Assembly: GCA_035488835.1 (NCBI GenBank)
Contig: DATHKX010000057.1
Coordinates: 21,149-85,148 of the forward strand
Reading direction: 5' to 3'
Length of the DNA: 64,000 nucleotides
Source of the DNA: Gemmatimonadales bacterium
Lineage (GTDB): Bacteria; Gemmatimonadota; Gemmatimonadetes; Gemmatimonadales; GWC2-71-9
In this document: positions 3,305 through 17,800 of the stretch, piece after piece
Layout: the number at the start of each line of letters is the position of its first letter
How positions within the stretch are numbered: the first letter of the stretch is position 1
The notes under the pieces: model-generated
What the model saw: the letters and a program-made list of their open reading frames with translations, nothing else
Databases searched by the model: none
What the model was told of the DNA's origin: nothing
Translations under genes and position numbers: made by a program

Positions 3305-3886
3305 ATGCGGCGGATCGCGGTAGTGCTCGTTACAGCGGCGGCAATCGGCGGGTGGCTCACACCATCGGCCGCACAAAAGGCCGCCAGGGTACCCAGTCTC
3401 AGGGCGGCGTCCTACATCTATCTCACGCCGAACCCGTTTCTGGGATCGTTGACGGCCCGGGTCCCGCGCACCGTGCGGCCCAGCGCCGATCGTCGAGCCC
3501 TGCACGCCGTTGCGGAAGCGATGCCGGCCCGAGCCTCGTGGAGTACGGAGCACCTGACCCAGCTTCCTGCGCGCGTGTCGTGGACGCCATCTCACACGGC
3601 GCTGGCGAGTGCATTCCTCGTCACCCTGTTGATCGATGCCGCGCAGACGCGCGAGCTCGCGCGCCAGGGCTGGGTTGGCTTCCGCGAATCGAATCCGCTG
3701 CTGGGCGAGCGGCCGAGCGTCGGCCGGGTGAACAGTTACACCGCCCTGGCGGGCCTCAGCGTGCTCGGCGCGGCCGCGGCGGCCCCGCCGCGCTTGCGCC
3801 CCTGGCTGCTCGGCGCCGCGATCGCGGTGCAGGCATTCACGATCCAGAGTAGTGTGCGCCAGGGGATACCCATCCGGTTTCCCTAG
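3305..3886 (+). CDS. Hypothetical secreted/membrane protein
   Basis: An internal ATG gives MRRIAVVLVTAAAIGGWLTPSAAQ, a signal-like N-terminus. Hydrophobic segments occur later in the protein. No family was recognised with confidence. Confidence 0.5.
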   Translation: MRRIAVVLVTAAAIGGWLTPSAAQKAARVPSLRAASYIYLTPNPFLGSLTARVPRTVRPSADRRALHAVAEAMPARASWSTEHLTQLPARVSWTPSHTALASAFLVTLLIDAAQTRELARQGWVGFRESNPLLGERPSVGRVNSYTALAGLSVLGAAAAAPPRLRPWLLGAAIAVQAFTIQSSVRQGIPIRFP

Positions 3887-3937
3887 ACGCAACGCGCGAG
3901 TGAGTTCGCGGCTTGAGCCGCGGATTACATTCGGTGA

Positions 3938-4645
3938 ATGACCCTCGGTGTTCTGTCAACGATCCCCAACGTCAACCGCTCCATCGTTCGCTGCACCCGC
4001 TGTCCGCGGTTGCGGGCCTATTGCCGCCGTGTAGCCCGGGACAAGAAGCGTGAATTTCGCGACTGGGAGTACTGGGGGAAGCCGGTTCCGGGCTTGGGCG
4101 ATCCGGATGCGCGGTTGCTCGTCGTCGGGCTCGCCCCCGCGGCGCACGGCGCCAACCGCACCGGGCGCATGTTCACGGGAGACTCGAGCGGCAGCTGGTT
4201 GTACGAGGCGCTCTATCGGCACGGGTTCGCGAGCCAGCCGCAATCGCTGTCCCGCGATGACGGCCTGACGCTCAACGACTGCTACATCTCCGCGGCGGCG
4301 CGGTGCGCGCCGCCCGGCAACAAGCCCAGCCGTGTCGAGCTCGACCGTTGCCGGCCGTATCTCGCAGCCGAGCTGCGATTGCTCCGGCGGGTGCGGGTGG
4401 TGGTAACGCTGGGACGGATCGCGCACGAGAGCTGGCTCAAGGCAGCGGGGTGGTGGGAGCGGCTCCCACCGCGCGCGCGGCCTCCGTTCGCTCACGGCGC
4501 GGAGACGATGCTGCCCGACGGCGCCGTGGTCATCGCGTCGTATCACCCGAGCCGCCAGAACACCAACACGGGCAAGCTGACCCCGACGATGTGGAACGCG
4601 GTGTTTCGGACAGCGCGGGCGCTGCTCGGGCAACCGACTCTTTAG
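3938..4645 (+). CDS. Uracil-DNA glycosylase superfamily protein (family 4/5, UdgB-like)
   Basis: CTRCPRL Fe-S Cys cluster region, the GLAPAAHGANRTGRMFTGDSSG motif, and a C-terminal YHPSRQN motif. Confidence 0.85.
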   Translation: MTLGVLSTIPNVNRSIVRCTRCPRLRAYCRRVARDKKREFRDWEYWGKPVPGLGDPDARLLVVGLAPAAHGANRTGRMFTGDSSGSWLYEALYRHGFASQPQSLSRDDGLTLNDCYISAAARCAPPGNKPSRVELDRCRPYLAAELRLLRRVRVVVTLGRIAHESWLKAAGWWERLPPRARPPFAHGAETMLPDGAVVIASYHPSRQNTNTGKLTPTMWNAVFRTARALLGQPTL

Positions 4646-4773
4646 GCTACCCGGACCCAAGTGGGCGGCGAACTGGCGATACGTCAGCGAGATACGCTCC
4701 CAGGGGCTGAGCAACCTGCAGGAGGATCGCGAGCCGTTCCGCTATCGGCCCTACCTTGGCTCCTTTTACGGCC

Positions 4774-4802
4774 TTGACAGTTCTTAAATCGTCTCTATTT
4801 TA
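4774..4802 (+). promoter_or_regulatory. Candidate sigma70-type promoter for the 4.9-12 kb operon
   Basis: TTGACA at 4774-4779, then a 16-17 nt spacer, then TATTTT/ATTTTA at 4796-4802. It sits in an AT-rich patch about 100 nt upstream of the GTG start at 4909. Confidence 0.35.
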
Positions 4803-4908
4803 GTGACGTTATGCGTCCCTAAAACACCGTGCGGTGGGACGCAACCAGGCCAGAAAAAGTGCGGGGTATGACCGTCGCCGTCAAGACGCCCGACTCCATG
4901 AATAGACC

Positions 4909-5457
4909 GTGAGATCCCTCCGACCGGTGGGAGTCGGGCTGGTGGTCGGCGCGATCGCGTTCGCGTGCGATCGCTCGCCCACCGCCGTGCCGATCCCAAC
5001 CCCGCTGGCGGCTCGGTCCCAACCCGGGCCAAGCAAGAAGTCCGGTCTGATCCCGTGTGCCCAATCCTATGACTCCGTAACCAAGCTCATCGGCCGACAG
5101 GGAGGGGCATTCCCCGTAGGCCCCCATTACGTGTTCGTCGATTCGCTGGCGTTGCGCGACACAGTGAGGATCACCATCGTGGCGCCAGCGGGCGCCGTGA
5201 GGTGGGTTCGGTTCCGGCCCGACGGCCTCGTCTTCCAGACGACCGTGGACGGTTGGTCCGCACTGCTCTACACGAATTACAAGGACTGCGGGGTGCCGAC
5301 GAGTGACACGCTCCGGATCGCTCAGGTCAGCGACTCGCTGCGCGTCCTCGGGTACCTGCAGACCTTCGTCAAATCCAAGAAGAACCCCTGGAGTCAAGGG
5401 ACACAATTCGTCGTCGGGCTGTTGCCGCATTTCTCGAACTACGCGGTCGCCTGGTAG
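4909..5457 (+). CDS. Lipoprotein with ZU5-like core and C-terminal HFSNYAVAW motif (paralog 1)
   Basis: Signal/lipobox ...LVVGAIAFAC. Core reads GGAFPVGPHYVFVDSLAL...VRFRPDGLVFQ. It ends ...LLPHFSNYAVAW. Confidence 0.7.
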   Translation: MRSLRPVGVGLVVGAIAFACDRSPTAVPIPTPLAARSQPGPSKKSGLIPCAQSYDSVTKLIGRQGGAFPVGPHYVFVDSLALRDTVRITIVAPAGAVRWVRFRPDGLVFQTTVDGWSALLYTNYKDCGVPTSDTLRIAQVSDSLRVLGYLQTFVKSKKNPWSQGTQFVVGLLPHFSNYAVAW

Positions 5458-5465
5458 GACTCACA

Positions 5466-6164
5466 ATGGCCTCGGAGAATCGTATGTCCCTTCGCCGTTC
5501 ACTGATCCCGCTGGCGCTCGCGCTGTTGGCCACCCGATGCGCCGACGGACCGCATCCCACGGCGGTGCAGCAGCCGACCGCCCCAGCGCCGCACTTCCTG
5601 CGGTGGGCCGGGGGCGCCGCGCCGCAGTTCACCTCGATCGGCGCGCTGTCGGGCGGGGTCGGTGATCGCGCTCGCCTCGCCGCTCCCGCGGGTGGGGTCA
5701 GTCTCGATCGGTATACGGCGTCGTTCTGGGCGGTCCGCGGCGAGCCGCGGTCTCTGCAGATCAACTACCTGAGCTCCACCGGGGACACCAGCTCGCCGTT
5801 CTTGCGGCTCACCACCACTGATCCGGCATATGTACCTGGGGTCGGCGACCTCGCGCCCGGCGACTCTGTGCTGATCACGGTGACGATCGACCCAGAGAAC
5901 ATCAAAGTGTCGCTCGAGCCGACAGGATTGCTGTTCGGCGAGCCCGGCCAGCTGGAGATCTCCTATGGCGGCGCCGATGGCGACCTGAACGGCGACGGTG
6001 TGCTGGACGACGCCGACTCCTACATCGAAGGCCGGCTGCTGGGGCTGTGGTATCGCGAGGGCACTGAGGGTGCGTGGGAGAGAATCCCTGCAGTGCAATT
6101 GCTCTCGGACAAGTCGTTCACCAGTGCGTTGCCCCACTTCTGCGAGTACGCGGTTTCCTGGTAG
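5466..6164 (+). CDS. Lipoprotein with C-terminal HFCEYAVSW motif (paralog 2; alternative start 5484)
   Basis: Signal MSLRRSLIPLALALLATRC. Contains a Ca-binding-like DGDLNGDGVLDDAD stretch. It ends ...ALPHFCEYAVSW. Only 8 nt separate it from paralog 1. Confidence 0.7.
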   Translation: MASENRMSLRRSLIPLALALLATRCADGPHPTAVQQPTAPAPHFLRWAGGAAPQFTSIGALSGGVGDRARLAAPAGGVSLDRYTASFWAVRGEPRSLQINYLSSTGDTSSPFLRLTTTDPAYVPGVGDLAPGDSVLITVTIDPENIKVSLEPTGLLFGEPGQLEISYGGADGDLNGDGVLDDADSYIEGRLLGLWYREGTEGAWERIPAVQLLSDKSFTSALPHFCEYAVSW

Positions 6165-6183
6165 TCGGCGGGGGACAAGCAGC

Positions 6184-8274
6184 ATGCACGCGTCGTCAAT
6201 CGTAATCGACAAGGCCCGGCAGCTCGCCGCCGCCGGACACCACGCCGAGGTCGTCGAGTACCTCGGCGGGCGACCGGGAAGTGAGCTGGCGGATTCGCCG
6301 AGCCTCGCGCTGCTGTACGGCACCGCGTACGCGCGGCTCGGGCGCCACGATGAGGGACAGCGGTGGCTCGACCTGGCGCTCGACCAGGCGCGCAAGCTTG
6401 ACGAGCAGACGGTCGAGCGTCACGCCCTCAATGCGCGGGGCGCCATCGCCCTGGTGAGCGGGCGGATCGACGAGGCAGCGGAGTACTTCACGCAGGCCCT
6501 CATGGCCGCCAGCCGTGACGGCGATCCTGCCACGACGGCCCGTTCCTCCAACAATCTCGGGATCATCAGCAACCTGCGGGGACGGCACGCGGAGGCGATC
6601 GGGTCCTGGGAGATCGCGGCTGCCGCCTTCGACCGCGCTGGTTTGCGCCAGGGCGTCGCCGAGTGCTACCACAACTTGGCGATCGCGTATCGGCAGCAGG
6701 GCGCGCTCGACCGCGCGCTGGCCACGGCCGACCGGGCCGTCGCCGAAGCCGAAGCGGCTGGAGATCGCACGCTCCTGGCGATGGCGCTCCGGGGGCACGC
6801 GGAGATCCGCTTGGTCCGCGGCGAGCCGGAGCTGGCGCGGGGTGAGCTGGACCGCGTTGGGGAGATCCGCCGCGGGCTGCGCGATACGGTCGGAGAGGCC
6901 GAGGACCTGCGGGTCGCGGCGTCGCTGTTGGTGGCCGAGGGCCAGCCGGCGGCCGCGGAGCGAGCCCTGCGCGAGGTGATCGCGCGGGCCGAGCCGCACG
7001 GGCGGCCGCAGCTTTTGGCGCAGGCGACCCGGGACTTGAGCGGGGTCCTGCGCCGCACCGGGCGGGACACCGAAGCCCATGCGGTGGCGCGCACGGCGCG
7101 GGCCATGTTCGCGCGCCTCGGCGCCGAGGGCGAAATCCGCGATCTGGCCGGTCAGGGCTGGGATGAGGCTTTCGCGGCCGAGCTGCGCGGGTCGCTGGCG
7201 CCGCTCCATGCGGCGCAGGAGTTGGCCGATGCCGGGCGCTATGCCGAGCTACTCAGCTACCTGAGTAAGCGCTCGCCGGACGAGCTCGAGCAGTCCCCCA
7301 TGCTGACCCTACTGTGTGGCCTCGCACACAGTCGACTGGGCCGGCTGGACCTGGGCCAGCAGTGGGCCATGGTCGCGCAGTTGCGGGCGCGCATGCTGGG
7401 GGATCGGAAGCTGGAAGCGCGGGCGCTCAACGTCTCCGGCGCCATCGCGCTGGAGCGGGGCGGCATCAGCGAGGCTACCTACTTCTTCACGCGGGCGCAG
7501 GAAAAGGCGATGCAGGATCATGACATGGCCGGCGTGGGCCGATGCGCCAACAACCTCGGCATCATCGCCAACATGCAGGGGGACTACACCCGGGCCGTCG
7601 GAGCGTACACCCGCGCGATCGCCGCGTACCAGAAGGCCCACCACGACCGCGGCATCATCGAGTCGCAGCACAACCTCGGGATCACGTACCGCGAGCAGGG
7701 GCAGCTGGACCGCGCGATGCGGGCCGCCGACGCGGCGCTGGGGAAGGCCGAGCGGCTGGGCGACCGGACGCTCGAGGCTCAGGCGCTCGCGGGACGGGCT
7801 GAGATCCGGGTCATTCGGGGTGAGCCCGAGCTCGCGATCCGCGACGCGGAGCGGGCGCTGGCGGTGCACCGCGAGCTGAAGGACGCTGTCCTCGAGACCG
7901 AGGACCTGCGAATCCTCGCCGTGGCGCTAGGCACCGCGGGGAAGACGCGAGAGGCCGAGGACATGCTCCGCGGGGTGATCGCCCGCGCGACGGCGCAGGA
8001 GCGGCCCCTGCTCGTCGCCGGTGCCCAGCGCGATCTCGCCCACCTGCTGGCGCTCCTGGGAGACGTCGCTGCGGCGAAACCGATGGCGCAGACGGCCCGT
8101 GCCACGTTCGACCGGCTGGGGGCGAAGGTGGAAATCCAGAAGCTGGACGTGTTGCTGGCGATCCCGGACCTCCTGGTTGCAAAGCAGGAGAGCGAACGCA
8201 TGACGGGATCGCATGCAGGACTGCGTGATGACGTACAACGAGGACGTTCGGGCGACCGTGCCCCACAGGAGTAA
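6184..8274 (+). CDS. Tandem-duplicated TPR-repeat protein (two homologous modules of about 340 aa)
   Basis: Two colinear modules share NNLGIISNLRG/NNLGIIANMQG, CYHNLAIAYRQQGALDRAL/SQHNLGITYREQGQLDRAM and RGEPELA in both. The second module starts near nt 7200. Confidence 0.8.
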   Translation: MHASSIVIDKARQLAAAGHHAEVVEYLGGRPGSELADSPSLALLYGTAYARLGRHDEGQRWLDLALDQARKLDEQTVERHALNARGAIALVSGRIDEAAEYFTQALMAASRDGDPATTARSSNNLGIISNLRGRHAEAIGSWEIAAAAFDRAGLRQGVAECYHNLAIAYRQQGALDRALATADRAVAEAEAAGDRTLLAMALRGHAEIRLVRGEPELARGELDRVGEIRRGLRDTVGEAEDLRVAASLLVAEGQPAAAERALREVIARAEPHGRPQLLAQATRDLSGVLRRTGRDTEAHAVARTARAMFARLGAEGEIRDLAGQGWDEAFAAELRGSLAPLHAAQELADAGRYAELLSYLSKRSPDELEQSPMLTLLCGLAHSRLGRLDLGQQWAMVAQLRARMLGDRKLEARALNVSGAIALERGGISEATYFFTRAQEKAMQDHDMAGVGRCANNLGIIANMQGDYTRAVGAYTRAIAAYQKAHHDRGIIESQHNLGITYREQGQLDRAMRAADAALGKAERLGDRTLEAQALAGRAEIRVIRGEPELAIRDAERALAVHRELKDAVLETEDLRILAVALGTAGKTREAEDMLRGVIARATAQERPLLVAGAQRDLAHLLALLGDVAAAKPMAQTARATFDRLGAKVEIQKLDVLLAIPDLLVAKQESERMTGSHAGLRDDVQRGRSGDRAPQE

Positions 8275-8282
8275 GAGAAGCC

Positions 8283-8819
8283 ATGAAGAAAGGTGAGATC
8301 ATGAAGGCCCTTCGTTTGCTGGTGGTCGCGCTGATCGTGGGCGGGTGCAGCGACCGCGCCCTCATCAGCGCTCCAAACGCGGCTCCGCAGGCCCCTGAGG
8401 CGTCGCTCATCGGAGACCTGCTCGGGGCCACGGGGCTCCTGCAATGCTCCAGCCTCTCGTACGCGTCGGCGACCCAGACGATCGGGTCTGGGGGCGGCAC
8501 GATTCGCGTCGGTCCGCACACCCTGACGGTCCCCGCCGGGGCGCTGCTCTCCCCGGTGGTGATCACGGGTGCGCTGGTGACGGGCCGCGGCGTCAACGCC
8601 GTCCGGTTCCAGCCGGAAGGGCTGAGGTTCCAACGGTCGGCGTATCTCACGATGAGCTACGCGAACTGCAACCTGCTCGGCCGGTTGCTGCCGAAGCGGA
8701 TCGCGTACGTCGGCGACGCGCTCAACATCCTTTCGTACCTCCTGTCGATCGACAACGTGCTCGGTACGAAGGTCACCGGGCGGATCGATCACTTCTCCAA
8801 CTACGCGGTCGCCTGGTGA
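8283..8819 (+). CDS. Lipoprotein with ZU5-like core and C-terminal HFSNYAVAW motif (paralog 3; alternative start 8301)
   Basis: Signal MKALRLLVVALIVGGC. Core reads IGSGGGTIRVGPHTLTVPAGALLSPVVITG...VRFQPEGLRFQRSAYLTMSY. It ends ...RIDHFSNYAVAW. Confidence 0.72.
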   Translation: MKKGEIMKALRLLVVALIVGGCSDRALISAPNAAPQAPEASLIGDLLGATGLLQCSSLSYASATQTIGSGGGTIRVGPHTLTVPAGALLSPVVITGALVTGRGVNAVRFQPEGLRFQRSAYLTMSYANCNLLGRLLPKRIAYVGDALNILSYLLSIDNVLGTKVTGRIDHFSNYAVAW

Positions 8820-10429
8820 CCGCGGCGGACCTGCTCCACGAAGGTCGCGCCCGAGAGCGGGCGGCTCGGATTCCCGAGGCGATCGCGTCGTACGAGGCGG
8901 CGATCGCCGCGGCGGAGCCCGCGGGAGAGGATGCGGCGTTGGCCGAGGCGCTGCGGCGCCTCGCCATCGTGCGCCACCGCCGGGGCGACTCCGCCGACGC
9001 GCGGGGGCTGTGCCGCCGCAGCCACGCGGTGGCGCTCCAGGCCGGTAACACCGTGCTCGCGGGCGAAGCGCTCAACACGCTCGGCGGGATCGACCTGGAG
9101 ACGGACGCCGTCGCCGATGCCCGCGAGAATTTCCTCCGCGCCCTGGAGCTGGGTGGGCAGAGTCGCGAGCTGCGCGCACGGGTGGAGCAGAACCTCGGCA
9201 TCCTCGCGAACATCCAAGGCGACTTCGACGAAGCGGTGGCGCGCTACGGGCGGTCCCTCGAGGCGTATCGCGCGTCCAACGACGAGCATGGCTGCGCGAT
9301 CGCCTATCACAACCTCGGCATGGCGAGCGCGGACCTGCAGCAATTCGACGAAGCGGAGCGCTACTTCCTGCAGAGCTACGAGATCGCCGAGCGCGCGGGC
9401 GACGTGCACCTCCAGGGCCTGTGCCTGGTCAACCACGCCGACGTGCATCTCGTGCGGGGGCGCTATGAGGACGCGCGGCGCAACGCGGAGGCCGCGCTCG
9501 TCACGTTCGATCGGCTCGACGCGCTCAGCGACAAGGCCAACGCGTATCGCGTTCTCGGCATGGTGTTCCGCGAGACCGGCCGGCCCGTGCTCGCCGAGGC
9601 GCGGCTGCGGTCAGCGATCGAGCTGGCGGTGAGTGCGGGCGCGGCATTGAACGAGGCGGAGGCCTCGCGCGAGCTGGCCCTGCTCCACCAGGCGATGGGG
9701 CGCAACCAGGAGGCGCTGAGCCTGCTCAACGCCGCGCATCGCCTGTTCGGGCGGCTCGACGCGCGTCGCGAGCTGGTCCATGTCGATGGCAAGATGGCCG
9801 AGCTCGAGGCCACCTACCTCGCGGTGGTGCGCGAGTGGGGCCAGTCCATCGAGTCCGCCGACCCCTACACCTTCGGCCACTGCGAGCGCGTGGCGCGGCA
9901 TGGCGTGGCCGTGGCCCGGGCGCTCGGGATGGACGAGCACGCCCAGACGACGCTCCGGCTCGGCGCCTACCTCCACGACCTGGGAAAAGTGCGCGTGCCG
10001 CACGAGATCCTGAGCAAGCCCGGCCCGCTGACACGCGACGAGCTCGAGGTGGTGCAGATGCATCCGATCTGGGGGATCGAGCTCCTCGCGAGCGTCGAGT
10101 TCCCCTGGGACTTGAAGCCCATCATCCGCTGGCACCACGAGCGCTATGATGGCACGGGATACCCGGATCGCCTGCGGGGAGACGAGATCCCACTTTCCGC
10201 GCAAGTCGTGGGGATCGCGGACGTCTACGACGCGCTCACCACCGCGCGTCCCTACCGGCCGGCCTTCTCCCGTGGGGCGGCGCTCAAGCAGATCGAGAGC
10301 TGCCGTGGGTTTTGGTCGAAGGCCGTGTATGGCGCCTTCGTCGCTTCGCTGGGCCAACCAGAAGCGCCGATGCGGGCGCACCCGCTACACGGCATAGTTG
10401 CGTCTCCGCCACACGCGGCCCGTCGCTAA
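8816..10429 (+). CDS. TPR module fused to an HD-GYP domain (cyclic-dinucleotide phosphodiesterase family)
   Basis: An in-frame GTG start overlaps the upstream stop (GTGA). The N-terminal TPR module is colinear with the 6184-8274 modules (QNLGILANIQGD, AYHNLGMASADL). The C-terminus has HDLGK...HHERYDGTGYP, the HD-GYP signature. Confidence 0.85.
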   Translation: MTAADLLHEGRARERAARIPEAIASYEAAIAAAEPAGEDAALAEALRRLAIVRHRRGDSADARGLCRRSHAVALQAGNTVLAGEALNTLGGIDLETDAVADARENFLRALELGGQSRELRARVEQNLGILANIQGDFDEAVARYGRSLEAYRASNDEHGCAIAYHNLGMASADLQQFDEAERYFLQSYEIAERAGDVHLQGLCLVNHADVHLVRGRYEDARRNAEAALVTFDRLDALSDKANAYRVLGMVFRETGRPVLAEARLRSAIELAVSAGAALNEAEASRELALLHQAMGRNQEALSLLNAAHRLFGRLDARRELVHVDGKMAELEATYLAVVREWGQSIESADPYTFGHCERVARHGVAVARALGMDEHAQTTLRLGAYLHDLGKVRVPHEILSKPGPLTRDELEVVQMHPIWGIELLASVEFPWDLKPIIRWHHERYDGTGYPDRLRGDEIPLSAQVVGIADVYDALTTARPYRPAFSRGAALKQIESCRGFWSKAVYGAFVASLGQPEAPMRAHPLHGIVASPPHAARR

Positions 10430-10518
10430 AGCATAGCAGCGCGCGGCACCTCTCTTGCGGCCCCGCCACAACCGGCTGCAGCACTTTCCGGTGGGGGTCC
10501 ATCACAGAGGGGGATTCC

Positions 10519-11952
10519 ATGAAACGTTGGCTACTTGCCGCCGCGCTGCTCGCCGGCGCGGCGTGCGACTCGCAGCGCGAACCCGCGGCACCGAGCCGCA
10601 CCGTCGATCCCGCGCTCACGGCGGCGCTCGCGACCGTCACGCCGAGCGACAGGCTGGTGGTGATCGTCAACTACGACGAAACGGCGACCACGTCGGATGC
10701 GATGAGCGCGGCCATCATGAACGTCGGCTCCGGCGTGATCCAGTTCAACAACCTGGACCTCGTGGCCGCCTTCGCCACGCCGGCCGAGATCACGGCGATC
10801 AGCGCGCTGCCGGGCGTGCAGGGCGTGTACGCGAACAAGCAGCTCAGGTACTCGATGCTGCACGAGAGCGTCCCGACCATCCGAGCCGATGCGGTCCACG
10901 CATCGGGCATCACCGGAAAAGGCGTCGGGATCGCCATCCTCGACTCGGGGATCGACGGGTTGTACAACCCCGACCTGCACTATCCCGACAAGACGGTCCA
11001 GAACATCAAGGTGATCGCGAACCTCACCGATCTGTTCACGTTCAAGGGCTCGATCAACAAGACCGCGAAGGCAGCGAACCTGTTCGTCGAGAATCTGCCC
11101 AACAGCGAGACTTCGGTCGGCCACGGCACCCACGTCGCCGGCATCGCGGCGGGCCTGGGCACGGCGTCCGGGGGCTATTACACGGGGGTCGCGCCGGGGG
11201 CGAAGCTCATCGGCATCGGGACGGGCGACATCCTGTTCATCTTCTGGGCCCTGGCGGGCTTCGACTACATCCTCGATCACCAGCAGGCCTACAACATCAA
11301 GGTTGTGAACAACTCCTGGGGAACGAGCGGTCCGTTCGATCCGAAGGATCCGATCAACAAGGCGACGAAGAAAGTGGCCAGCAAGGGCATCACGGTCGTG
11401 TTCGCCGCGGGGAACGACGGCCCCGATCAGAACACGCTCAATCCGTACAGCGTGGCGCCCTGGGTGATCGGCGTGGCGGCGGGCTGCAAGAATCTGCCCG
11501 ATCCGACCAACTCCGCAATCCACTGCGCCGATCAGACGGGACAGAATCGGGCCGCGGTGCTGGCCGACTTCTCGTCGCGGGGCATCCCCGGTGATCCGAT
11601 GTACCATCCCGACGTCACCGCGCCGGGCGTGCACATCGTGTCCACCCGCGCCTCGACCGGCACGGTGCTCAACGCCAGCGACGCGAACCACGACTTCGAT
11701 CTGACGAGCAGCTGCGCCATCAGCTTGGCGAACGAGCAGTATTACACCTGCGCGTCCGGCACCTCGATGGCGACCCCCCACGTCGTCGGCGTGGTGGCGC
11801 TGATGCAGGAAGCGGCAGGGGGGCGCCTGACGCCCAATCAGATCGCGTCGGTCCTGACGCAGACGGCGCGCCCGCTCCCGGGGTTTGCTCTATGGGAAGT
11901 GGGAGCGGGGTACGTGGACGCGCTGGCCGCGGTGAACGCGGTACGGCGGTAG
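10519..11952 (+). CDS. Exported subtilisin-like serine protease (peptidase S8)
   Basis: RBS agagggggA upstream. Signal/lipobox MKRWLLAAALLAGAAC. Catalytic triad contexts AILDSGID, HGTHVAGIAAG and SGTSMATPHVVG are all present. Confidence 0.9.
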   Translation: MKRWLLAAALLAGAACDSQREPAAPSRTVDPALTAALATVTPSDRLVVIVNYDETATTSDAMSAAIMNVGSGVIQFNNLDLVAAFATPAEITAISALPGVQGVYANKQLRYSMLHESVPTIRADAVHASGITGKGVGIAILDSGIDGLYNPDLHYPDKTVQNIKVIANLTDLFTFKGSINKTAKAANLFVENLPNSETSVGHGTHVAGIAAGLGTASGGYYTGVAPGAKLIGIGTGDILFIFWALAGFDYILDHQQAYNIKVVNNSWGTSGPFDPKDPINKATKKVASKGITVVFAAGNDGPDQNTLNPYSVAPWVIGVAAGCKNLPDPTNSAIHCADQTGQNRAAVLADFSSRGIPGDPMYHPDVTAPGVHIVSTRASTGTVLNASDANHDFDLTSSCAISLANEQYYTCASGTSMATPHVVGVVALMQEAAGGRLTPNQIASVLTQTARPLPGFALWEVGAGYVDALAAVNAVRR

Positions 11953-12611
11953 GGCGATAAGGGGGGCGGGGGCGGCTCGAGTCGACTGAGCGCGGAGAGG
12001 TTGCGACCGATCCGCACCGCCACCATCACGAACATCCCGACGACGAGCGCGACCGCCGCGCCGGTGGCGATCGGCGCGACGGCCGCGCCTGGCCCGCTCA
12101 GAGCCAGCGCGATGTTGGCAGCGACGAGGACGATCCGAGCTTCGGTCGGGCCGATCCGGCTGTACCCCAGCCGGAACACGCCGAAGGCCTGGGACTCGAG
12201 ATAGATGTTGATCGACAGGATGAGGTAGGCGAGCACGCCCGCCAGCGCCACGCCCAGATCCACATAGGGAGACAGGCCGATCCCCGCGCCGATCGCCGCC
12301 GTCGAGAACGCATCGACGACATGGTCCAGGTAGTAGCCGTAGCGCGGCCGCTCCGCACGGCGCACGCGCGCGAGCGTTCCGTCCAGACTGTCGCCGAACC
12401 AATTCACCACCAGCAAGGCGCTCGCCGCCCACAGCCACGCCGCGCTCAGGGTGGAAAGCGCGTACGCCACTCCCGTGCCGAGCGCGCCCACCATCCCGAG
12501 GACGGTCAGGCCGTCGGAGGTCATCCACGGCGGCAACCGGGCCGCGATGGCGCGGAGCAGCCACCGCTCGGGCTCGGCGAGCAGGAACGTCAGCTCGCGG
12601 CGCGCCGCCAC
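11838..12611 (-). CDS. CDP-alcohol phosphatidyltransferase family protein (GTG start inferred)
   Basis: The motif DSLDGTLARVRRAERPRYGYYLDHVVD fits D-G-x2-A-R-x8-G-x3-D-x3-D. The protein is multi-pass hydrophobic. The start was chosen at an in-frame GTG overlapping the stop of the upstream gene. The track ORF extends to 12896, but that would overlap the upstream gene. Confidence 0.72.
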   Translation of the reverse strand: MAARRELTFLLAEPERWLLRAIAARLPPWMTSDGLTVLGMVGALGTGVAYALSTLSAAWLWAASALLVVNWFGDSLDGTLARVRRAERPRYGYYLDHVVDAFSTAAIGAGIGLSPYVDLGVALAGVLAYLILSINIYLESQAFGVFRLGYSRIGPTEARIVLVAANIALALSGPGAAVAPIATGAAVALVVGMFVMVAVRIGRNLSALSRLEPPPPPLSPYRRTAFTAASASTYPAPTSHRANPGSGRAVCVRTDAI

Positions 12612-13141
12612 CAGACCATCCGGAGCGAGGGGATCATCAAGAGCGCGAACAGGGCGACCATGATCCACACCGGGACTTGCACGGCGGCACCGAGCCATGC
12701 GAGCAGGGCATAGCGCGGTAGGCAGCGCGCCGCCACGGCGGCGGTGTATTTGCCGGCCGGGCAACCGGTCGCGAACGCCAGGGCTTTGAAGGGGAAGAAC
12801 GGCAGCGGTGTCAGACCCGACAGCGCGATCGTTACAAAGGGGAAGCGACGGAACAACCGCTCGGGCCACGTCCTCACCCCCTGGCCCCCTCTCCACTGAT
12901 CGCGCGCCATCCGCGCGATCAGGGGTACGAACATTCGGTGGTCCGCGACGGCGGCGAGCATCGTGCCCGCCGTCGCGACGAGGGTCGTGGTCCAGACGCC
13001 GAGCCGCGGCCCATACCAGATGATGGCGGGCTCGTGCGGCACAAAGGCGAGGGCGATGTTGGACAGGAACGCGTACGCGAAGAGCAGCGCGGCGGAGGTC
13101 GCGGGGGGATGCATGACCCGATATTCGCGCGCCGCTTTCAA
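12590..13141 (-). CDS. DedA/VTT-domain-like membrane protein
   Basis: 183-aa polytopic ORF. The pattern FVPHEPAIIWYG...LSGLTPLPFFPFKALAFATG resembles SNARE-associated/DedA family proteins. The assignment is tentative. Confidence 0.55.
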   Translation of the reverse strand: MKAAREYRVMHPPATSAALLFAYAFLSNIALAFVPHEPAIIWYGPRLGVWTTTLVATAGTMLAAVADHRMFVPLIARMARDQWRGGQGVRTWPERLFRRFPFVTIALSGLTPLPFFPFKALAFATGCPAGKYTAAVAARCLPRYALLAWLGAAVQVPVWIMVALFALLMIPSLRMVWWRRAAS

Positions 13142-13156
13142 GCAGACGTCAAGACG

Positions 13157-13894
13157 CTACCGCACGTCGAACTCCGCCGTGATGTCGTAGTCGTCCACGT
13201 CGCAGATCCCCACGTGCGCGTAATAGTGTCCCGGCCGGGCCGCGGCTTCCTCGGGGAAGTGGATGGCGTCCCGGAACCGCCCGCCGCGCTGCATGGTGAA
13301 GCGTCGGGCGTCCGGGCTCGGCACGATCGTCGTGGTGTCCCACACCGTGACCCCTTCGTGCGACTTAACGGCGATGCACAGGAATCGGTTGTTCTGGAGG
13401 ATGAAGAAGATCGGCGCGGCGCGCCGGTTGAGGATGGTGTACACGAGCATCGGATTCACGCCCGTCGGGCTGCCGGCGTCGTCCTTCCAGCTGAAGCGAT
13501 TGGGGATCACGGAGAGCGTAACGTCGGCGTGGAGGGTCACGCCCCTGTCCACGGTCCCCCGGGCCGTTCCCGGTGGGTCGAGCTCCTTGGCGTTTTCCAC
13601 CTCCATGCCGATGCTGGGATCGCCGCGTTCCGGGAGACGCGTGACCCGCCCACTGGCCTCGATGTACCGATTGAGGTAGCGACCCCAGCGCTCCGGTTTA
13701 CCGACCACCGGCACCACGTACGTCCGCGTACCGAGCACACGGAGCGGCAGCGGGACCACGATCGTCCACACGCCGAACTCGTTGTCCCGCTGGAGGAACC
13801 CTTGGATGGTCAGCGCGGTGTCGACCGACTCCTGCGTGGCCGCGGGTGCGGCGGTGCAGACGAGGAGAGCGAGTACGAGGGCGCGTTCGCGCAT
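13157..13894 (-). CDS. Secreted hypothetical protein
   Basis: Signal peptide MRERALVLALLVCTAAPAATQ. 245-aa ORF with host-like codon bias. No family recognised. Confidence 0.55.
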   Translation of the reverse strand: MRERALVLALLVCTAAPAATQESVDTALTIQGFLQRDNEFGVWTIVVPLPLRVLGTRTYVVPVVGKPERWGRYLNRYIEASGRVTRLPERGDPSIGMEVENAKELDPPGTARGTVDRGVTLHADVTLSVIPNRFSWKDDAGSPTGVNPMLVYTILNRRAAPIFFILQNNRFLCIAVKSHEGVTVWDTTTIVPSPDARRFTMQRGGRFRDAIHFPEEAAARPGHYYAHVGICDVDDYDITAEFDVR

Positions 13895-14676: not shown

Positions 14677-15009
14677 GGATGGCTCGGGGGCGCCTTGCGG
14701 ATCGCGCCTAAGCTGCGGGCGAAGGGCTGGCCGGCGCAAGTACGGTGAAGGGCTGCTCCCTTCACCGAATCCGTCGTCGTTCTTCTTGCCGCTAAACGTA
14801 GACCGCTAATCTGTTGCGATCGTTAGGCCATCGCAGCCCCGCGCGTTGTCGGCCGAGGGCGATTCCGCTACGCCTCGACGTAAATCCGTTACGCGGTGAT
14901 CGGGATCACGACGCGTTCGCCCTGTGGGTGCTATCAACCAGTGAGCGTGCCGTGTTCAATTCGTCCTGCGAATGTCGCAAAAGGGACGGGCGTTGCTGCA
15001 TTCTGGGAA

Positions 15010-15051
15010 TGGTCGCGACAGGACTCCAACCTGTGACCTCTGGCATGTGAG
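15010..15051 (-). other. tRNA-like 3'-half fragment (anticodon loop to discriminator; Val-CAC-like)
   Basis: Reverse complement reads CTCACAT-GCCAG-AGGTC-ACAGG-TTGGAGT-CCTGT-CGCGACC-A. The T-arm is 16/17 identical to the tRNA-Ser(UGA) T-arm at 18168-18184. No matching 5' anticodon-stem strand or acceptor strand lies upstream. The T-loop has G where the conserved C56 is expected. Confidence 0.35.
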
Positions 15052-15093
15052 AGTCGTAGTTCTCGTGATGCCAACAAAGAGTGGAGGAAAACC

Positions 15094-15942
15094 ATGGCAT
15101 ACCAGGCCGAAATCAGTCGTAAGAACCCGGGTTGTTTCTTGTTTTTGGTGGACCAGTCAGAGTCGATGGAAGACCCTTTTGGCGGCGGAGAGGCTGGCAG
15201 ACAGAAGGCCGAAGAGCTCGCGACGATACTCAACAAGCTCATTCATAACCTGTGCATCCGTTGCTCCAAGTCGGACTCTATGTACGACTACTTTCATGTC
15301 GGTGTGCTGGGCTACAGCGAAGCGAGCTGTAAACCAGCGCTCGGCGGTGAACTGAGCGGGCGCTCTCTGGTACCGATCAGTGAATTGGCCAATAAGCCGT
15401 TGCGCATCGAAGACAGGGTAAAGAAATCGGACGATGGCGCCGGCGGAGTCATGGACCAAACCGTCAAATTTCCAGTCTGGTTCGATCCATACTCGAAGGG
15501 GGGCACTCCGATGTGCGCCGCGCTCAAGGAGGCAACCCAGATTACCCAGACGTGGTGTCAGGAGCATCCGAACGGCTTTCCGCCGATCGTTATCAACATC
15601 ACCGACGGCGAGGCAACGGATGGAGATCTCGTTGCCGAGGCGCGTAAATTAACGGCGGTCAGTGGCGAAGACGGTTCGGTGTTGCTCTTCAACATCCATC
15701 TTTCGTCGACGGCCGGACCATCGATCGAATTACCGGGCAACGGCAACAAACTGCCGGATCAACATGCCAAACAGCTCTTTGAAGCCTCATCGACGCTCAC
15801 ACCATTCATGGTTGCACGCGCGACAGAGCTGGGTATGCCGGCCGAGGAAAACTCTCGAGGATTCATCTTTAACGCGCAACCGTTGCACGTAATCCATTTT
15901 CTCGATATCGGCACGCGACCGGCGAATGTGCATCTGCGCTGA
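15094..15942 (+). CDS. von Willebrand factor A (vWA) domain protein, TerY-like
   Basis: RBS GGAGG upstream. MIDAS elements are present: DQSES (DxSxS), GGTPM and the TDGEATDG Asp. 282 aa. Confidence 0.85.
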   Translation: MAYQAEISRKNPGCFLFLVDQSESMEDPFGGGEAGRQKAEELATILNKLIHNLCIRCSKSDSMYDYFHVGVLGYSEASCKPALGGELSGRSLVPISELANKPLRIEDRVKKSDDGAGGVMDQTVKFPVWFDPYSKGGTPMCAALKEATQITQTWCQEHPNGFPPIVINITDGEATDGDLVAEARKLTAVSGEDGSVLLFNIHLSSTAGPSIELPGNGNKLPDQHAKQLFEASSTLTPFMVARATELGMPAEENSRGFIFNAQPLHVIHFLDIGTRPANVHLR

Positions 15943-15953
15943 GTACCACTGCA

Positions 15954-16754
15954 ATGGGCACCTCCGGCGGTGAAGCACGCCACGCGGCCAACGAGTGCGA
16001 CATCAAGGTCTTCTGCTGCCCAAAGCTGGGCAACAGCCTTGAGGAGTACGAGGATGCCTGGGCGCATCGGCAAACTCGTCCCCCGGTCGGCATCCGCGTG
16101 GCGGTGGCTGACGGCGCCACCGAAAGCAGTTTTGCCAAGCTATGGGCCGTGCTGTTGGCCGAAAGCTATGTGCGAAGTGAGGTCACCGGGGCAGAGTTTT
16201 TTGCGCGGTTGAACCCGGCGCGCCGCCTCTGGCGGCGAAGATTAGCGGGCCGACCTCTCCCCTGGTTCGCTAGCGAAAAGGCCGAGCAGGGGGCCTTTGC
16301 GGCTTTCCTCGGTGTCCAGATTGACGCTCACACGAACCGTTGGACGGCGCTGGCCATGGGCGACTGTTGTCTTATGCAGCTCGATAACGTCGGGAAAAGG
16401 ATGCGGGTGGTCGAAACGTTTCCCTTACAGAAATCTTCGCAATTCACGATGAGCCCTTATCTGATCGGCTCCAGGTCGAATGGGGAATCACTGAACGAAC
16501 GGATACAAATCAGCAAGGGCAGCCTGCGCGATGGAGACATGCTGCTGCTCGCCACGGATGCGATGGCCGCCTGGCTGCTTAAACGGCATGAAGAGGGGCG
16601 ACCATTATGGAATTGGCTTTACCGGAAGCTCGGCACGCCTGAGAGCTTTGCCGCGATCGTCGCCTACGGCCGCAAAAATGGATTGCGCAACGACGACTTC
16701 ACCCTTGTCCGTGTCATTCATCACGATTCACGGGTTGAAGCGAAGGAGAGGTAG
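15954..16754 (+). CDS. PP2C-family protein phosphatase-like protein
   Basis: Metal-binding-type motifs EEYEDAW, VAVADGATES, AMGDCCL and LLLATDAMAAW occur in PP2C order. The gene starts 11 nt after the vWA gene. Confidence 0.72.
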   Translation: MGTSGGEARHAANECDIKVFCCPKLGNSLEEYEDAWAHRQTRPPVGIRVAVADGATESSFAKLWAVLLAESYVRSEVTGAEFFARLNPARRLWRRRLAGRPLPWFASEKAEQGAFAAFLGVQIDAHTNRWTALAMGDCCLMQLDNVGKRMRVVETFPLQKSSQFTMSPYLIGSRSNGESLNERIQISKGSLRDGDMLLLATDAMAAWLLKRHEEGRPLWNWLYRKLGTPESFAAIVAYGRKNGLRNDDFTLVRVIHHDSRVEAKER

Positions 16755-16756
16755 CG

Positions 16757-17800
16757 ATGCGTGCATGGCCAGACCTGACTGAATACCATGAGGCGGTTCA
16801 GCACCCGCCAAAGGCTTTTGCCGACCCAGGATTGAAAGCGGTCACCCTCGAGCTCGATCGGTTCGGTATGCCCAAGCCGGCCACCGGCGGCAACGCCGTG
16901 GTCTACAAGGCCAACGAACCGGGCGGACTTTTGACATTCAAGAAGACCTGGGCAATTCGCTGCTTCCTGCGCCCGATCAGCGACCATGCCGAACGTTATG
17001 AGGCGATCTCCAAACATCTTCGCAAGGTGCGCCTGCCCTATGATGTCAATTTTCAGTTTCTCAAGCAGGGCATTCAAATTCGCTCCAACTGGTTCCCTAT
17101 CGTCAAAATGCAATGGGCCAAGGGCGACCTTCTGCACAGTCACATTGAGAAGCATCTAGGCTATCCGGCCGCACTGGCGGCATTGCGGGTAAAATGGGTC
17201 ACACTTGTTCGCCACCTCGAAGCCGCCCAGGTGGCGCACGGCGATTTACAGCACGGTAATATCCTGGTGCGCGGCGGATCGATCCAGTTGGTGGACTACG
17301 ACGGCATGTGGGTGCCGGCCTTACGGGGCCGCCACGCCACGGAAATCGGCCACCGTGCCTACCAACATCCCGAACGGAGCGAGCAAGACTACGGCCAAGA
17401 GATTGATCGTTTTTCAGCTCTCGTCATTTATCTATCGCTGGCGGCGCTGGAGAGGGATGTCACCCTGTGGGAACGTTTTCATACCGGCGACAATCTGATC
17501 TTCGTGCGCGAAGATTTCCAGCAGTTGGGTCGATCGGCAATTTGGCAACAATTACGCCGTATCGGATCGGGGGAAATCGATCAGCTCGCCGCTGTCGTGG
17601 CGGCCATGGCGCAGCAGCATCCGATGAAGGTCAGCAATCTCGATAGCGTTCTCCAAAATCCGGCGAGCTACAAGTTCCCTAGCTCGATTCCGGCGTCGAC
17701 TCCGCCCCAGCGAGTCGCTCCCAAGCCGGCGCGCGTGCCGACGCCGCCAGTGCCGAGTTGGATGAAAAAGGGCGGTTATCGTGATCATTCGGATGACTGA
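16757..17800 (+). CDS. Ser/Thr protein kinase-like protein with Pro-rich tail
   Basis: RBS GGAGAGG upstream. Gly-loop-like TGGNAVVYKA, catalytic loop HGDLQHGNIL, a DYDG (DFG-equivalent) motif and GHRAYQHPER are present. The gene starts 2 nt after the PP2C stop. Confidence 0.8.
   Translation: MRAWPDLTEYHEAVQHPPKAFADPGLKAVTLELDRFGMPKPATGGNAVVYKANEPGGLLTFKKTWAIRCFLRPISDHAERYEAISKHLRKVRLPYDVNFQFLKQGIQIRSNWFPIVKMQWAKGDLLHSHIEKHLGYPAALAALRVKWVTLVRHLEAAQVAHGDLQHGNILVRGGSIQLVDYDGMWVPALRGRHATEIGHRAYQHPERSEQDYGQEIDRFSALVIYLSLAALERDVTLWERFHTGDNLIFVREDFQQLGRSAIWQQLRRIGSGEIDQLAAVVAAMAQQHPMKVSNLDSVLQNPASYKFPSSIPASTPPQRVAPKPARVPTPPVPSWMKKGGYRDHSDD

Follow-up and report, generated by a model that had tools for sequence, protein, structure and literature searches.

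The window analysed here is a stretch of 64,000 nucleotides (nt) from a Gemmatimonadales bacterium (GCA_035488835.1, contig DATHKX010000057.1, positions 21,149–85,148 of the forward strand). It contains a conserved two-gene cassette found in the phylum Gemmatimonadota. The first gene, lying upstream, encodes a small lipoprotein, here termed Z, which we assign from a predicted fold and a short motif to the ZU5 superfamily. The second encodes a tetratricopeptide repeat (TPR) protein, in which the repeats are joined either to an HD-GYP domain or to a second TPR module. Two of these cassettes, Z-Z-TPR/TPR and Z-TPR-HD-GYP, stand one after the other in the window, behind one conserved promoter-like site. 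The pairing of Z with TPR-HD-GYP is made of known domain types and is itself undescribed in the domain libraries and literature searched, as an earlier note on this DNA had supposed.

That note had described the locus as a single six-gene operon, in which lipoproteins, TPR proteins, an HD-GYP enzyme and an exported subtilisin formed an envelope-to-second-messenger signalling module. The linkage of lipoprotein, TPR and HD-GYP is kept. The subtilisin gene falls outside the unit, and the six genes resolve into two tandem cassettes and a passenger. For the signalling module, an exported part with a cytoplasmic second-messenger enzyme is what fits best, and the protease is not integral to it.

The six genes run on the plus strand from 4909 to 11952, as the list of open reading frames (ORFs) and the junction sequences bear out. 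The Z genes lipo1 (4909–5457; 182 amino acids, aa) and lipo2 (5466–6164; 232 aa) are followed by a gene for a TPR-only protein (6184–8274; 696 aa). A third Z gene, lipo3 (8283–8819; 178 aa), has an alternative start at 8301; in most of its homologues the start is at MKALR, 6 codons later. It leads into the TPR-HD-GYP gene (8816–10429; 537 aa). The last gene encodes a subtilisin of family S8, predicted to be exported (10519–11952; 477 aa). Intergenic gaps of 8, 19, 8, −4 and 89 nt had been given before and agree with the ORF list and our junction reading, with the sizes hinging on the chosen start codons. At the −4 nt junction between lipo3 and the TPR-HD-GYP gene, a GTG start overlaps the TGA stop as GTGA.

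Conservation of the lipoprotein–TPR gene pair

Conservation was followed in two censuses. The forward census comprised 80 species-representative genome loci picked by the lipoprotein, in which the window proteins were located by tblastn. The reverse census comprised 80 metagenome loci picked by the TPR-HD-GYP protein. Every species-level locus with enough DNA (79/79) has a TPR gene within 300 nt 3′ of Z on the same strand. Wherever the sequence continues in this forward set, the downstream TPR is fused to HD-GYP. Among the metagenome loci, Z lies directly 5′ of TPR-HD-GYP in 68 of 71; in the other three, the TPR-HD-GYP gene comes straight after a Z-Z-TPR/TPR block. TPR-only copies in related loci are always preceded by Z genes. 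Distant Z relatives with different tails are likewise followed by a TPR gene. A gene-neighbourhood search with the lipoprotein as query had been suggested before, and in it the linkage of Z with the TPR gene recurs far beyond chance, which that of the S8 gene does not.

Clustering of the flanking ORFs from 80 loci delimits the unit. Only Z and TPR/HD-GYP recur everywhere. The next-commonest flanking families are found in at most 27 of the 80 loci, reflecting local synteny, and the flanking genes vary between cassette loci.

All 240 close Z homologues retrieved come from Gemmatimonadota metagenomes or metagenome-assembled genomes, and all keep the tail. A Z profile run against 1.84 billion representatives matched 2786 clusters (50% identity) at E ≤ 1e-3 and 941 at E ≤ 1e-10. 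Nearly all of the matched clusters are 165–235 aa long, and the end of the profile is the end of the protein. In distant relatives the tail differs, with HFSGYLLAE and HFSNYSVAF as examples. Taxonomic breadth is seen here through a genome scan that used the tail motif as its key; the sole non-Gemmatimonadota label among the loci belongs to a 2-kb contig binned as Thermoleophilia.

Beyond the pair, the slot after the HD-GYP gene is variable. Elsewhere it is filled by a GGDEF gene, by a sigma-54 activator with an SBP_bac_5 gene, by SBP_bac_5 alone or by unrelated genes. In at least ten loci a GGDEF gene lies directly 3′ of the HD-GYP gene, a contextual link to cyclic di-GMP (c-di-GMP). An OppA-family SBP_bac_5 gene stands beside the cassette in several independent architectures. 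One distant contig carries a sigma-54 activator, Z, a single-module TPR gene and SBP_bac_5, in that order. SBP_bac_5 and the sigma-54 activator are both absent from the window.

Individual loci add detail to this picture. In locus L005 an orthologous GGDEF gene, encoding a diguanylate cyclase (14774–15637), occupies the slot of the S8 gene of the window. A GGDEF gene has the equivalent position in L022, L023, L030, L040, L099, L104, L106, L108 and L130. Five tandem Z genes precede a double-module TPR gene in L022 (13223–16434) and L072 (3552–6706), and in both loci genes for a sigma-54 enhancer-binding protein and for an SBP_bac_5 lipoprotein lie upstream of the Z array. A scan for TGGC-N8-TGC[A/T] found no suitably placed sigma-54 promoter 5′ of the Z arrays in loci with a sigma-54 activator. 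In L024 (13332–14879) and L045 (3969–5516) a second TPR-HD-GYP paralogue, without a Z gene of its own, lies about 1.2 kb downstream.

A rule of one Z per TPR module was also considered. It fits the window (two Z genes with the double module, one with the single) and 26 of 32 clusters, and it fails elsewhere. The counting of TPR modules is crude, and the trend is not used as evidence here.

Predicted features of the lipoproteins and their TPR partners

The three lipoproteins of the window share a signal peptide with a cysteine, a low-complexity tether, a β-rich domain and a terminal HF[S/C]xYAV[A/S]W, after which the stop codon follows. They are the only ORFs in the window with this ending. lipo1 and lipo3 are 43% identical on alignment. 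The tripeptide is HFS in lipo1 (5428–5436) and lipo3 (8790–8798) and HFC in lipo2 (6135–6143). The tails predicted to be released are SNYAVAW for lipo1 (5434–5454), CEYAVSW for lipo2 (6141–6161) and SNYAVAW for lipo3 (8796–8816).

Z proteins are predicted to be exported lipoproteins. Their N-terminus, read from the sequences, is basic and then hydrophobic, with an invariant lipobox cysteine (Cys22 in all 49 aligned members). A regular expression finds a lipobox-like motif in 95/120 and 103/149 homologues. The lipobox of the lipo2 clade is atypical, with an arginine directly before the cysteine (−1). In the AlphaFold2 (AF2) model of lipo3, a disordered tether follows the lipobox cysteine. An extracytoplasmic location is further indicated because one clade carries a conserved pair of cysteines and the other a calcium-binding loop.

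This loop is dockerin-like (DGDLNGDGVLDDAD) and in the lipo2 clade sits where lipo1 and lipo3 carry the cysteine pair; the Dockerin_1 matches in the clade are sub-threshold. The lipo2 clade also has an insertion of about 27 aa. Some of its members end in ...LCWD/E, giving an 8-residue tail.

Neither Pfam nor NCBIfam has a family above threshold for lipo1, lipo2 or lipo3. Run against the sequences of PDB chains, the lipoprotein profile found nothing, its best match being unrelated (E 1.4). The AF2 model of lipo3 is a β-sandwich, with a predicted local distance difference test score (pLDDT) above 90 over the folded core. When this model was compared with the PDB by Foldseek, ranks 1–16 were ZU5 domains of ankyrin and ZO-1 (E 3e-5 to 2e-3, probability 1.0). 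The GAIN domains of BAI3, CD97 and BAI2 came after them. HFS forms the turn between the last two strands of the model (163–170 and 173–177). In 19 of 49 members, the Pfam ZU5 family (PF00791) matches the N-terminal half weakly and in register, where the fold begins; the best scores are 16–18 bits, below the gathering cut-off of 21, and cover only model positions 2–43 of 97. The three window lipoproteins give no match to PF00791. We assign them to the ZU5 superfamily by modelled fold and by motif, below the reach of the curated sequence model.

In PIDD, Nup98 and CARD8, an HFS site is cleaved between Phe and Ser through an N–O acyl shift, and serine, threonine and cysteine are all documented as nucleophiles (PMC3210808). 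The motif defined in that work, H/S-F-S/T/C before the last strand, is present in the Z family. Near the C-terminus, xF[S/T/C] is found in 371 of 389 homologues, with His before the Phe in 368 of the 371. Phe is followed by Ser in 324 of these motif-bearing proteins, by Cys in 45 and by Thr in 2. Because this position is limited to these three amino acids, it has the signature of a nucleophile. Ser and Cys interchange at this position in the lipo2 clade (74 Ser, 45 Cys). Of the 371, 357 have exactly 7 residues after Phe, and the chain usually ends in Trp. A near-invariant His-Phe, a following residue that is only Ser, Cys or Thr, and a tail fixed at 7 residues together point to catalysis and not to a mere turn. 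We predict that HF[S/C/T] is an autoproteolytic site of the PIDD/Nup98 type, which in lipo3 would be cut between Phe171 and Ser172.

The closest relatives in kind are the autoproteolytic members of the ZU5 superfamily, namely PIDD, the Nup98 C-terminal domain, the FIIND of NLRP1 and CARD8, and GAIN. Z has the same β-sandwich by structure search, and it has the H-F-S type tripeptide before the last strand with Ser, Thr or Cys as nucleophile. The piece after the predicted cut would be a strand within the fold, as in GAIN, with its tethered agonist, and in FIIND, with its UPA fragment. Unlike these proteins, the Z domain stands alone on a bacterial lipoprotein tether and scores below the Pfam ZU5 threshold. 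It ends 7 residues past the predicted cut, and the released piece would be a heptapeptide rather than a domain. As partner it has a separate TPR protein in the cytoplasm.

Among bacteria, ZU5 autopeptidase domains have been predicted in polymorphic toxins and surface proteins (Zhang et al. 2012, PMC3482391). Like those domains, Z is bacterial, predicted to be exported and predicted to process itself. Unlike Z, they lie N-terminally in RHS or toxin proteins of very large size, from which a large product is released, and the cassette contains no toxin, RHS repeat or immunity gene. In a full-text literature search, ZU5 was not linked in any paper to HD-GYP, to lipoproteins of the Z type or to Gemmatimonadota.

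The TPR, HD-GYP and S8 domain calls made in the earlier note are borne out by Pfam, with the catalytic motifs intact. TPR_12 matches the TPR-only protein at 1.6e-37 and the TPR-HD-GYP protein at 2.4e-39. The latter also matches HD_5 (2.2e-33; 115.9 bits, cut-off 27.2) and HD (8.9e-21; 74.8 bits). Its TPRs are encoded at nt 8822–9751 and its HD-GYP domain at about nt 9848–10306. The motif HHERYDGTGYP spans residues 440–450 (nt 10133–10165). H387-D388, H440-H441-E442...G446 and G448-Y449-P450 are invariant in 38 TPR-HD-GYP homologues. The best PDB sequence matches of the protein are V-cGAP3 (1.8e-33), PmGH (2.4e-28) and PA4781. It carries the motifs by which HD-GYP phosphodiesterases are recognised, and we predict that it is a c-di-GMP or 3′3′-cGAMP phosphodiesterase.

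The translations of the TPR-HD-GYP and TPR-only proteins lack a signal peptide, and for this reason both are placed in the cytoplasm. In the AF2 model of TPR-HD-GYP, sixteen helices form eight TPRs over residues 3–312, with pLDDT above 90. Top Foldseek matches for this domain are LGN/Pins TPR structures (template modelling, TM, scores 0.76–0.78), the majority from complexes with a partner peptide. The A helices bear a periodic polar stripe (E/R/N at +5 and +8/9), made up of E44/R47, E84/N87, R122/N126, N166, Y244 and E282/R285. Conserved positions number 36/132 on the A helices versus 21/137 on the B helices, counted over 68 orthologues down to 55% identity. From the model, the TPR domain looks like a peptide binder. 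The TPR-only protein consists of two tandem copies of the eight-TPR module, each of about 320–345 aa, and has no output domain. The duplication is legible in the translation, and tblastn with each half of the protein leads to the same genes in related loci.

The resemblance to LGN/Pins (GPSM2) lies in the eight-TPR superhelix and in NLG-type motifs on the A helices, which line the peptide-binding channel. In contrast to the cassette protein, LGN/Pins is a eukaryotic polarity protein, and at 17–21% identity the likeness in function supported here extends to the binding of extended peptides and no further. RpfG, PmGH and V-cGAP3 resemble TPR-HD-GYP in their intact HD and GYP motifs and in having an N-terminal sensor domain on a cyclic-dinucleotide enzyme. 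They differ in the sensor, which in the cassette is TPR and not REC or GAF, and in the partner, which in the cassette is an exported ZU5 lipoprotein. Experimental precedent for a TPR domain that controls a c-di-GMP enzyme comes from RcbB. In the TPR-GGDEF pair RcbAB, RcbB's TPR domain keeps the catalytic domain repressed, and its partner relieves the repression (PMC12282931).

A candidate peptide signal and its competitors

We favour, tentatively and at a little under even confidence, a model in which an exported ZU5 carrier cleaves itself and holds the peptide SxYAVAW, and in which this peptide, once freed and imported, binds the TPR domain and controls HD-GYP. The exported ZU5 domain would make a cut in its own chain, between Phe and Ser/Cys, through an N-to-O or N-to-S acyl shift like that of PIDD, Nup98 and FIIND (step 1). 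As the last β-strand of the fold, the 7-residue product would remain in place once cut, comparable to the GAIN tethered peptide (step 2). It would be freed only when the carrier unfolds or is degraded, following a logic known from GAIN tethered agonists and from “functional degradation” of FIIND (step 3). The free heptapeptide would then be taken up, with an OppA-family binding protein as a candidate in some loci (step 4). The recurrent OppA-family gene fits peptide uptake. In the concave groove of the TPR domain the heptapeptide would alter HD-GYP activity, and hence the c-di-GMP level (step 5). The TPR-only protein may pass the same signal to another partner, and in some lineages a sigma-54 activator is alongside (step 6). 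A heptapeptide ligand for the TPR domain is the simplest link, because a domain of the exported, self-cleaving type and a cytoplasmic TPR domain of the peptide-binding type are encoded by genes that are almost never separated.

If these steps hold, the cassette could represent peptide signalling of a new kind in a diderm phylum, with a ZU5-stored heptapeptide, SxYAVAW, read by LGN-like TPR receptors that set c-di-GMP. We regard this wider claim as possible, and our confidence in it is clearly below even.

By analogy, the cassette would work most like the RRNPP systems of Firmicutes (Rap–Phr, NprR–NprX, PlcR–PapR, AimR–AimP), with which it has gene adjacency and TPRs in common and, by inspection of the sequences, probably export. 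In both, a precursor gene, whose product in the cassette is predicted to be exported, adjoins a gene for a cytoplasmic TPR protein, here a putative receptor. The final 7 residues of the precursor are the candidate signal, some loci have an Opp-family binding protein close by, and receptors occur both with and without a fused output. The five-criterion signature of RRNPP systems includes a propeptide of 10–100 aa, Sec export, a receptor of 250–500 aa with TPRs, and gene adjacency (PMC10075063). Adjacency is close here, with gaps of −4 to 19 nt in the window and the pair kept in 79/79 and 68/71 related loci. The proteins with TPRs are borderline in size at 537 and 696 aa. The Z proteins, at 178, 182 and 232 aa and with a folded domain, lie outside the propeptide range. 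By the top 50 Foldseek hits, the two kinds of system are not homologous. Unlike a propeptide of 10–100 aa, Z is a folded lipoprotein of 170–230 aa with a built-in cleavage motif. The gene order is reversed, the host belongs to a diderm phylum and the tails are undiversified. The output is HD-GYP, whereas RRNPP receptors use a helix-turn-helix domain or a phosphatase.

Several points weigh against the peptide model. The tail is the most conserved segment of Z, with only its second residue varying, and its variants follow phylogeny on the TPR-HD-GYP tree. Such conservation would be expected of a structural last strand, unlike the diversified peptides of RRNPP systems. The Z count reaches five per two TPR modules, with no strict match between the two. 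A carrier of about 170 aa would be a costly source of a heptapeptide. The window has no permease or SBP gene near the cassette, and most related loci have none either. The Foldseek top 50 for the TPR domain and the phmmer PDB matches include LGN/Pins and consensus TPRs and no RRNPP receptor (Rap, Rgg, NprR, PlcR, PrgX or AimR). The HD-GYP domain (about residues 345–497) is the lower-confidence part of the AF2 model. Finally, we infer every step that comes after folding, from cleavage, release and uptake to peptide–TPR binding and the direction of enzyme control. A test of co-variation between tail and TPR was dropped, with too few independent changes for it.

The competitor that survives best, which we nevertheless hold to be unlikely, is that the two genes are coupled through co-expression only. 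Self-cleavage would then serve the maturation of Z itself. TPR-HD-GYP would adjust c-di-GMP whenever Z is made, and its TPR domain would bind other partners. As a variant, the ester intermediate could possibly pass the new C-terminus to an envelope component, the heptapeptide being no more than a leaving group. ZU5 domains in other bacterial proteins are processing modules of large surface proteins or toxins (PMC3482391), and the fold alone is enough to explain the conserved tail. TPR domains of c-di-GMP enzymes can also bind other TPR proteins, as in RcbAB (PMC12282931). However, the pair is kept in 79/79 and 68/71 loci over varied flanks, with overlapping or very short junctions, which argues for direct functional coupling. 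Co-expression also sits poorly with the TPR-only copies, since they too are always preceded by Z genes.

A sentinel of export or lipoprotein maturation is a different possibility, and in our judgement a distinctly improbable one. Here the TPR domain would bind the tail of Z, or the whole of Z, in the cytoplasm when export fails. c-di-GMP would report secretion or trafficking stress, and no import would take place. Lipoproteins are known as trafficking sentinels from NlpE and the Cpx response. The sentinel would reconcile an exported Z with a cytoplasmic TPR protein without any transporter, and most loci lack a transporter gene. A conserved, undiversified tail suits a signal that is kept inside the cell. 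It leaves three features unexplained, however: the ZU5 features of extracytoplasmic type (cysteine pair or calcium-binding loop), the recurrent adjoining OppA-family gene and the keeping of up to five Z paralogues.

The earlier note had treated the S8 protease as an integral member of one six-gene system, in which it could cut or release the lipoprotein tails. We consider this very unlikely. The gene product matches Peptidase_S8 (4.7e-41; 141.4 bits, cut-off 21.8), and the triad motifs ILDSGID, HGTHVAG and GTSMATPHV are legible in the translation. Its gene shares the strand of the cassette and begins 89 nt after the TPR-HD-GYP gene; the gap holds no terminator-like site, and a good Shine-Dalgarno sequence, GAGGGGG, precedes the ATG. 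The S8 gene may share a transcript with the cassette. In Bacillus, subtilisin-type proteases mature the Phr peptides, and degradation of a ZU5 carrier by an S8-type protease could release a tail that is already cleaved. Against this, S8 lies 3′ of the HD-GYP gene at only 1/54 species-level and 5/58 metagenome loci. These are all close relatives, with TPR-HD-GYP at least 88% identical to that of the window, and S8 is absent from all other loci. The tails moreover bear a cleavage motif of their own; with HFS as the predicted ZU5 autoproteolytic tripeptide, the idea that a protease is needed to process them does not hold up. The S8 gene is a lineage-specific passenger outside the conserved module.

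That the ZU5 domain does not cleave at all, with HFS a structural turn and the lipoprotein an intact binding module, is favoured by the existence of ZU5 domains without self-cleavage (such as UNC5b, with Leu at the Phe position; PMC3210808) and by the under-threshold Pfam ZU5 scores, but it is hardly probable given the near-total conservation of His-Phe, the restriction of the next residue to Ser, Cys or Thr and the fixed tail of 7.

The peptide model would have consequences for a phylum that is abundant in soil and whose signalling is almost unstudied. The cassette is widespread in Gemmatimonadota, judging by the 2786 clusters that match the lipoprotein profile. The model offers a concrete, testable role for thousands of proteins that are unnamed or called “hypothetical protein” in the sources consulted. 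If it is true, cytoplasmic sensing of peptides by TPR proteins extends past Firmicutes and other Gram-positive bacteria. A self-cleaving ZU5 domain would be a conditional peptide store, which would give ZU5 autoproteolysis a signalling role in bacteria and tie envelope events directly to c-di-GMP turnover. The sigma-54 activator may be an additional output in some lineages. The cassette would also provide a bacterial counterpart with which to compare the GAIN tethered agonist and FIIND fragment logic of eukaryotes. Even if the peptide model fails, the literature searched contains no description of a lipoprotein that stands free, carries an invariant self-cleavage-type HF[S/C/T] and has its gene tied to one for TPR-HD-GYP.

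Promoter and surroundings of the locus

A sigma-70-like promoter-like site, TTGACA-N16-TATTTT, is present at 4774–4801 (+), as noted before, and matches the consensus at 10 of 12 positions. One site of this kind was found in 3800–13200 versus 0.6 in shuffled sequence, which is not significant by itself. Its conservation adds to the consensus scan. TTGACAG-N16-TAnnTT followed by AGTGAC is kept 5′ of the first lipoprotein gene in four other lineages (L051, L005, L009 and L007). In L005 and L007, the genes upstream of the conserved promoter differ from those of the window. A further conserved segment, CGAGCCGnTCCGCTAT, sits upstream of the −35 element in the window and in the orthologous leaders of the same four loci.

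The promoter is followed by a 5′ leader of about 107 nt (4802–4908, +). Its conserved blocks in the five-lineage alignment include an invariant GCCGTCAAGA[C/T]GCCC. Rfam holds no family for this leader, and the alignment gives weak support for a consensus structure and weak evidence of covariation. A riboswitch or other known RNA was considered and set aside on these grounds.

The S8 gene overlaps at its 3′ end, by about 115 nt (11838–11952), a convergent ORF on the minus strand (11838–12896), which leaves no room for a terminator between the two. The minus-strand ORF carries a CDP-alcohol phosphatidyltransferase domain. Other flanking genes are a glutamyl-tRNA synthetase-like ORF (39–1325, −), read from its translation, and a gene for a uracil-DNA glycosylase family protein (3938–4645, +; Pfam UDG 1.3e-29). 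Given these housekeeping genes, the cassette is chromosomal and not on an obvious mobile element.

The cassette was also considered as an anti-phage defence system and rejected, as the PADLOC matches to the module are to generic TPR, HD and subtilase only. Further downstream lies a TerY-P triad, a PADLOC candidate for defence (15094–17800, +). It encodes a TerY-like vWA protein (3.7e-99), a PP2C phosphatase (1.3e-28) and a Ser/Thr kinase (9.1e-77). The region of the triad, at 14–18 kb, has a guanine-cytosine (GC) content of 0.59 versus 0.67–0.71 nearby; the cassette region itself is at about 0.67–0.71. This lower-GC stretch suggests that the TerY-P triad lies in an acquired island.

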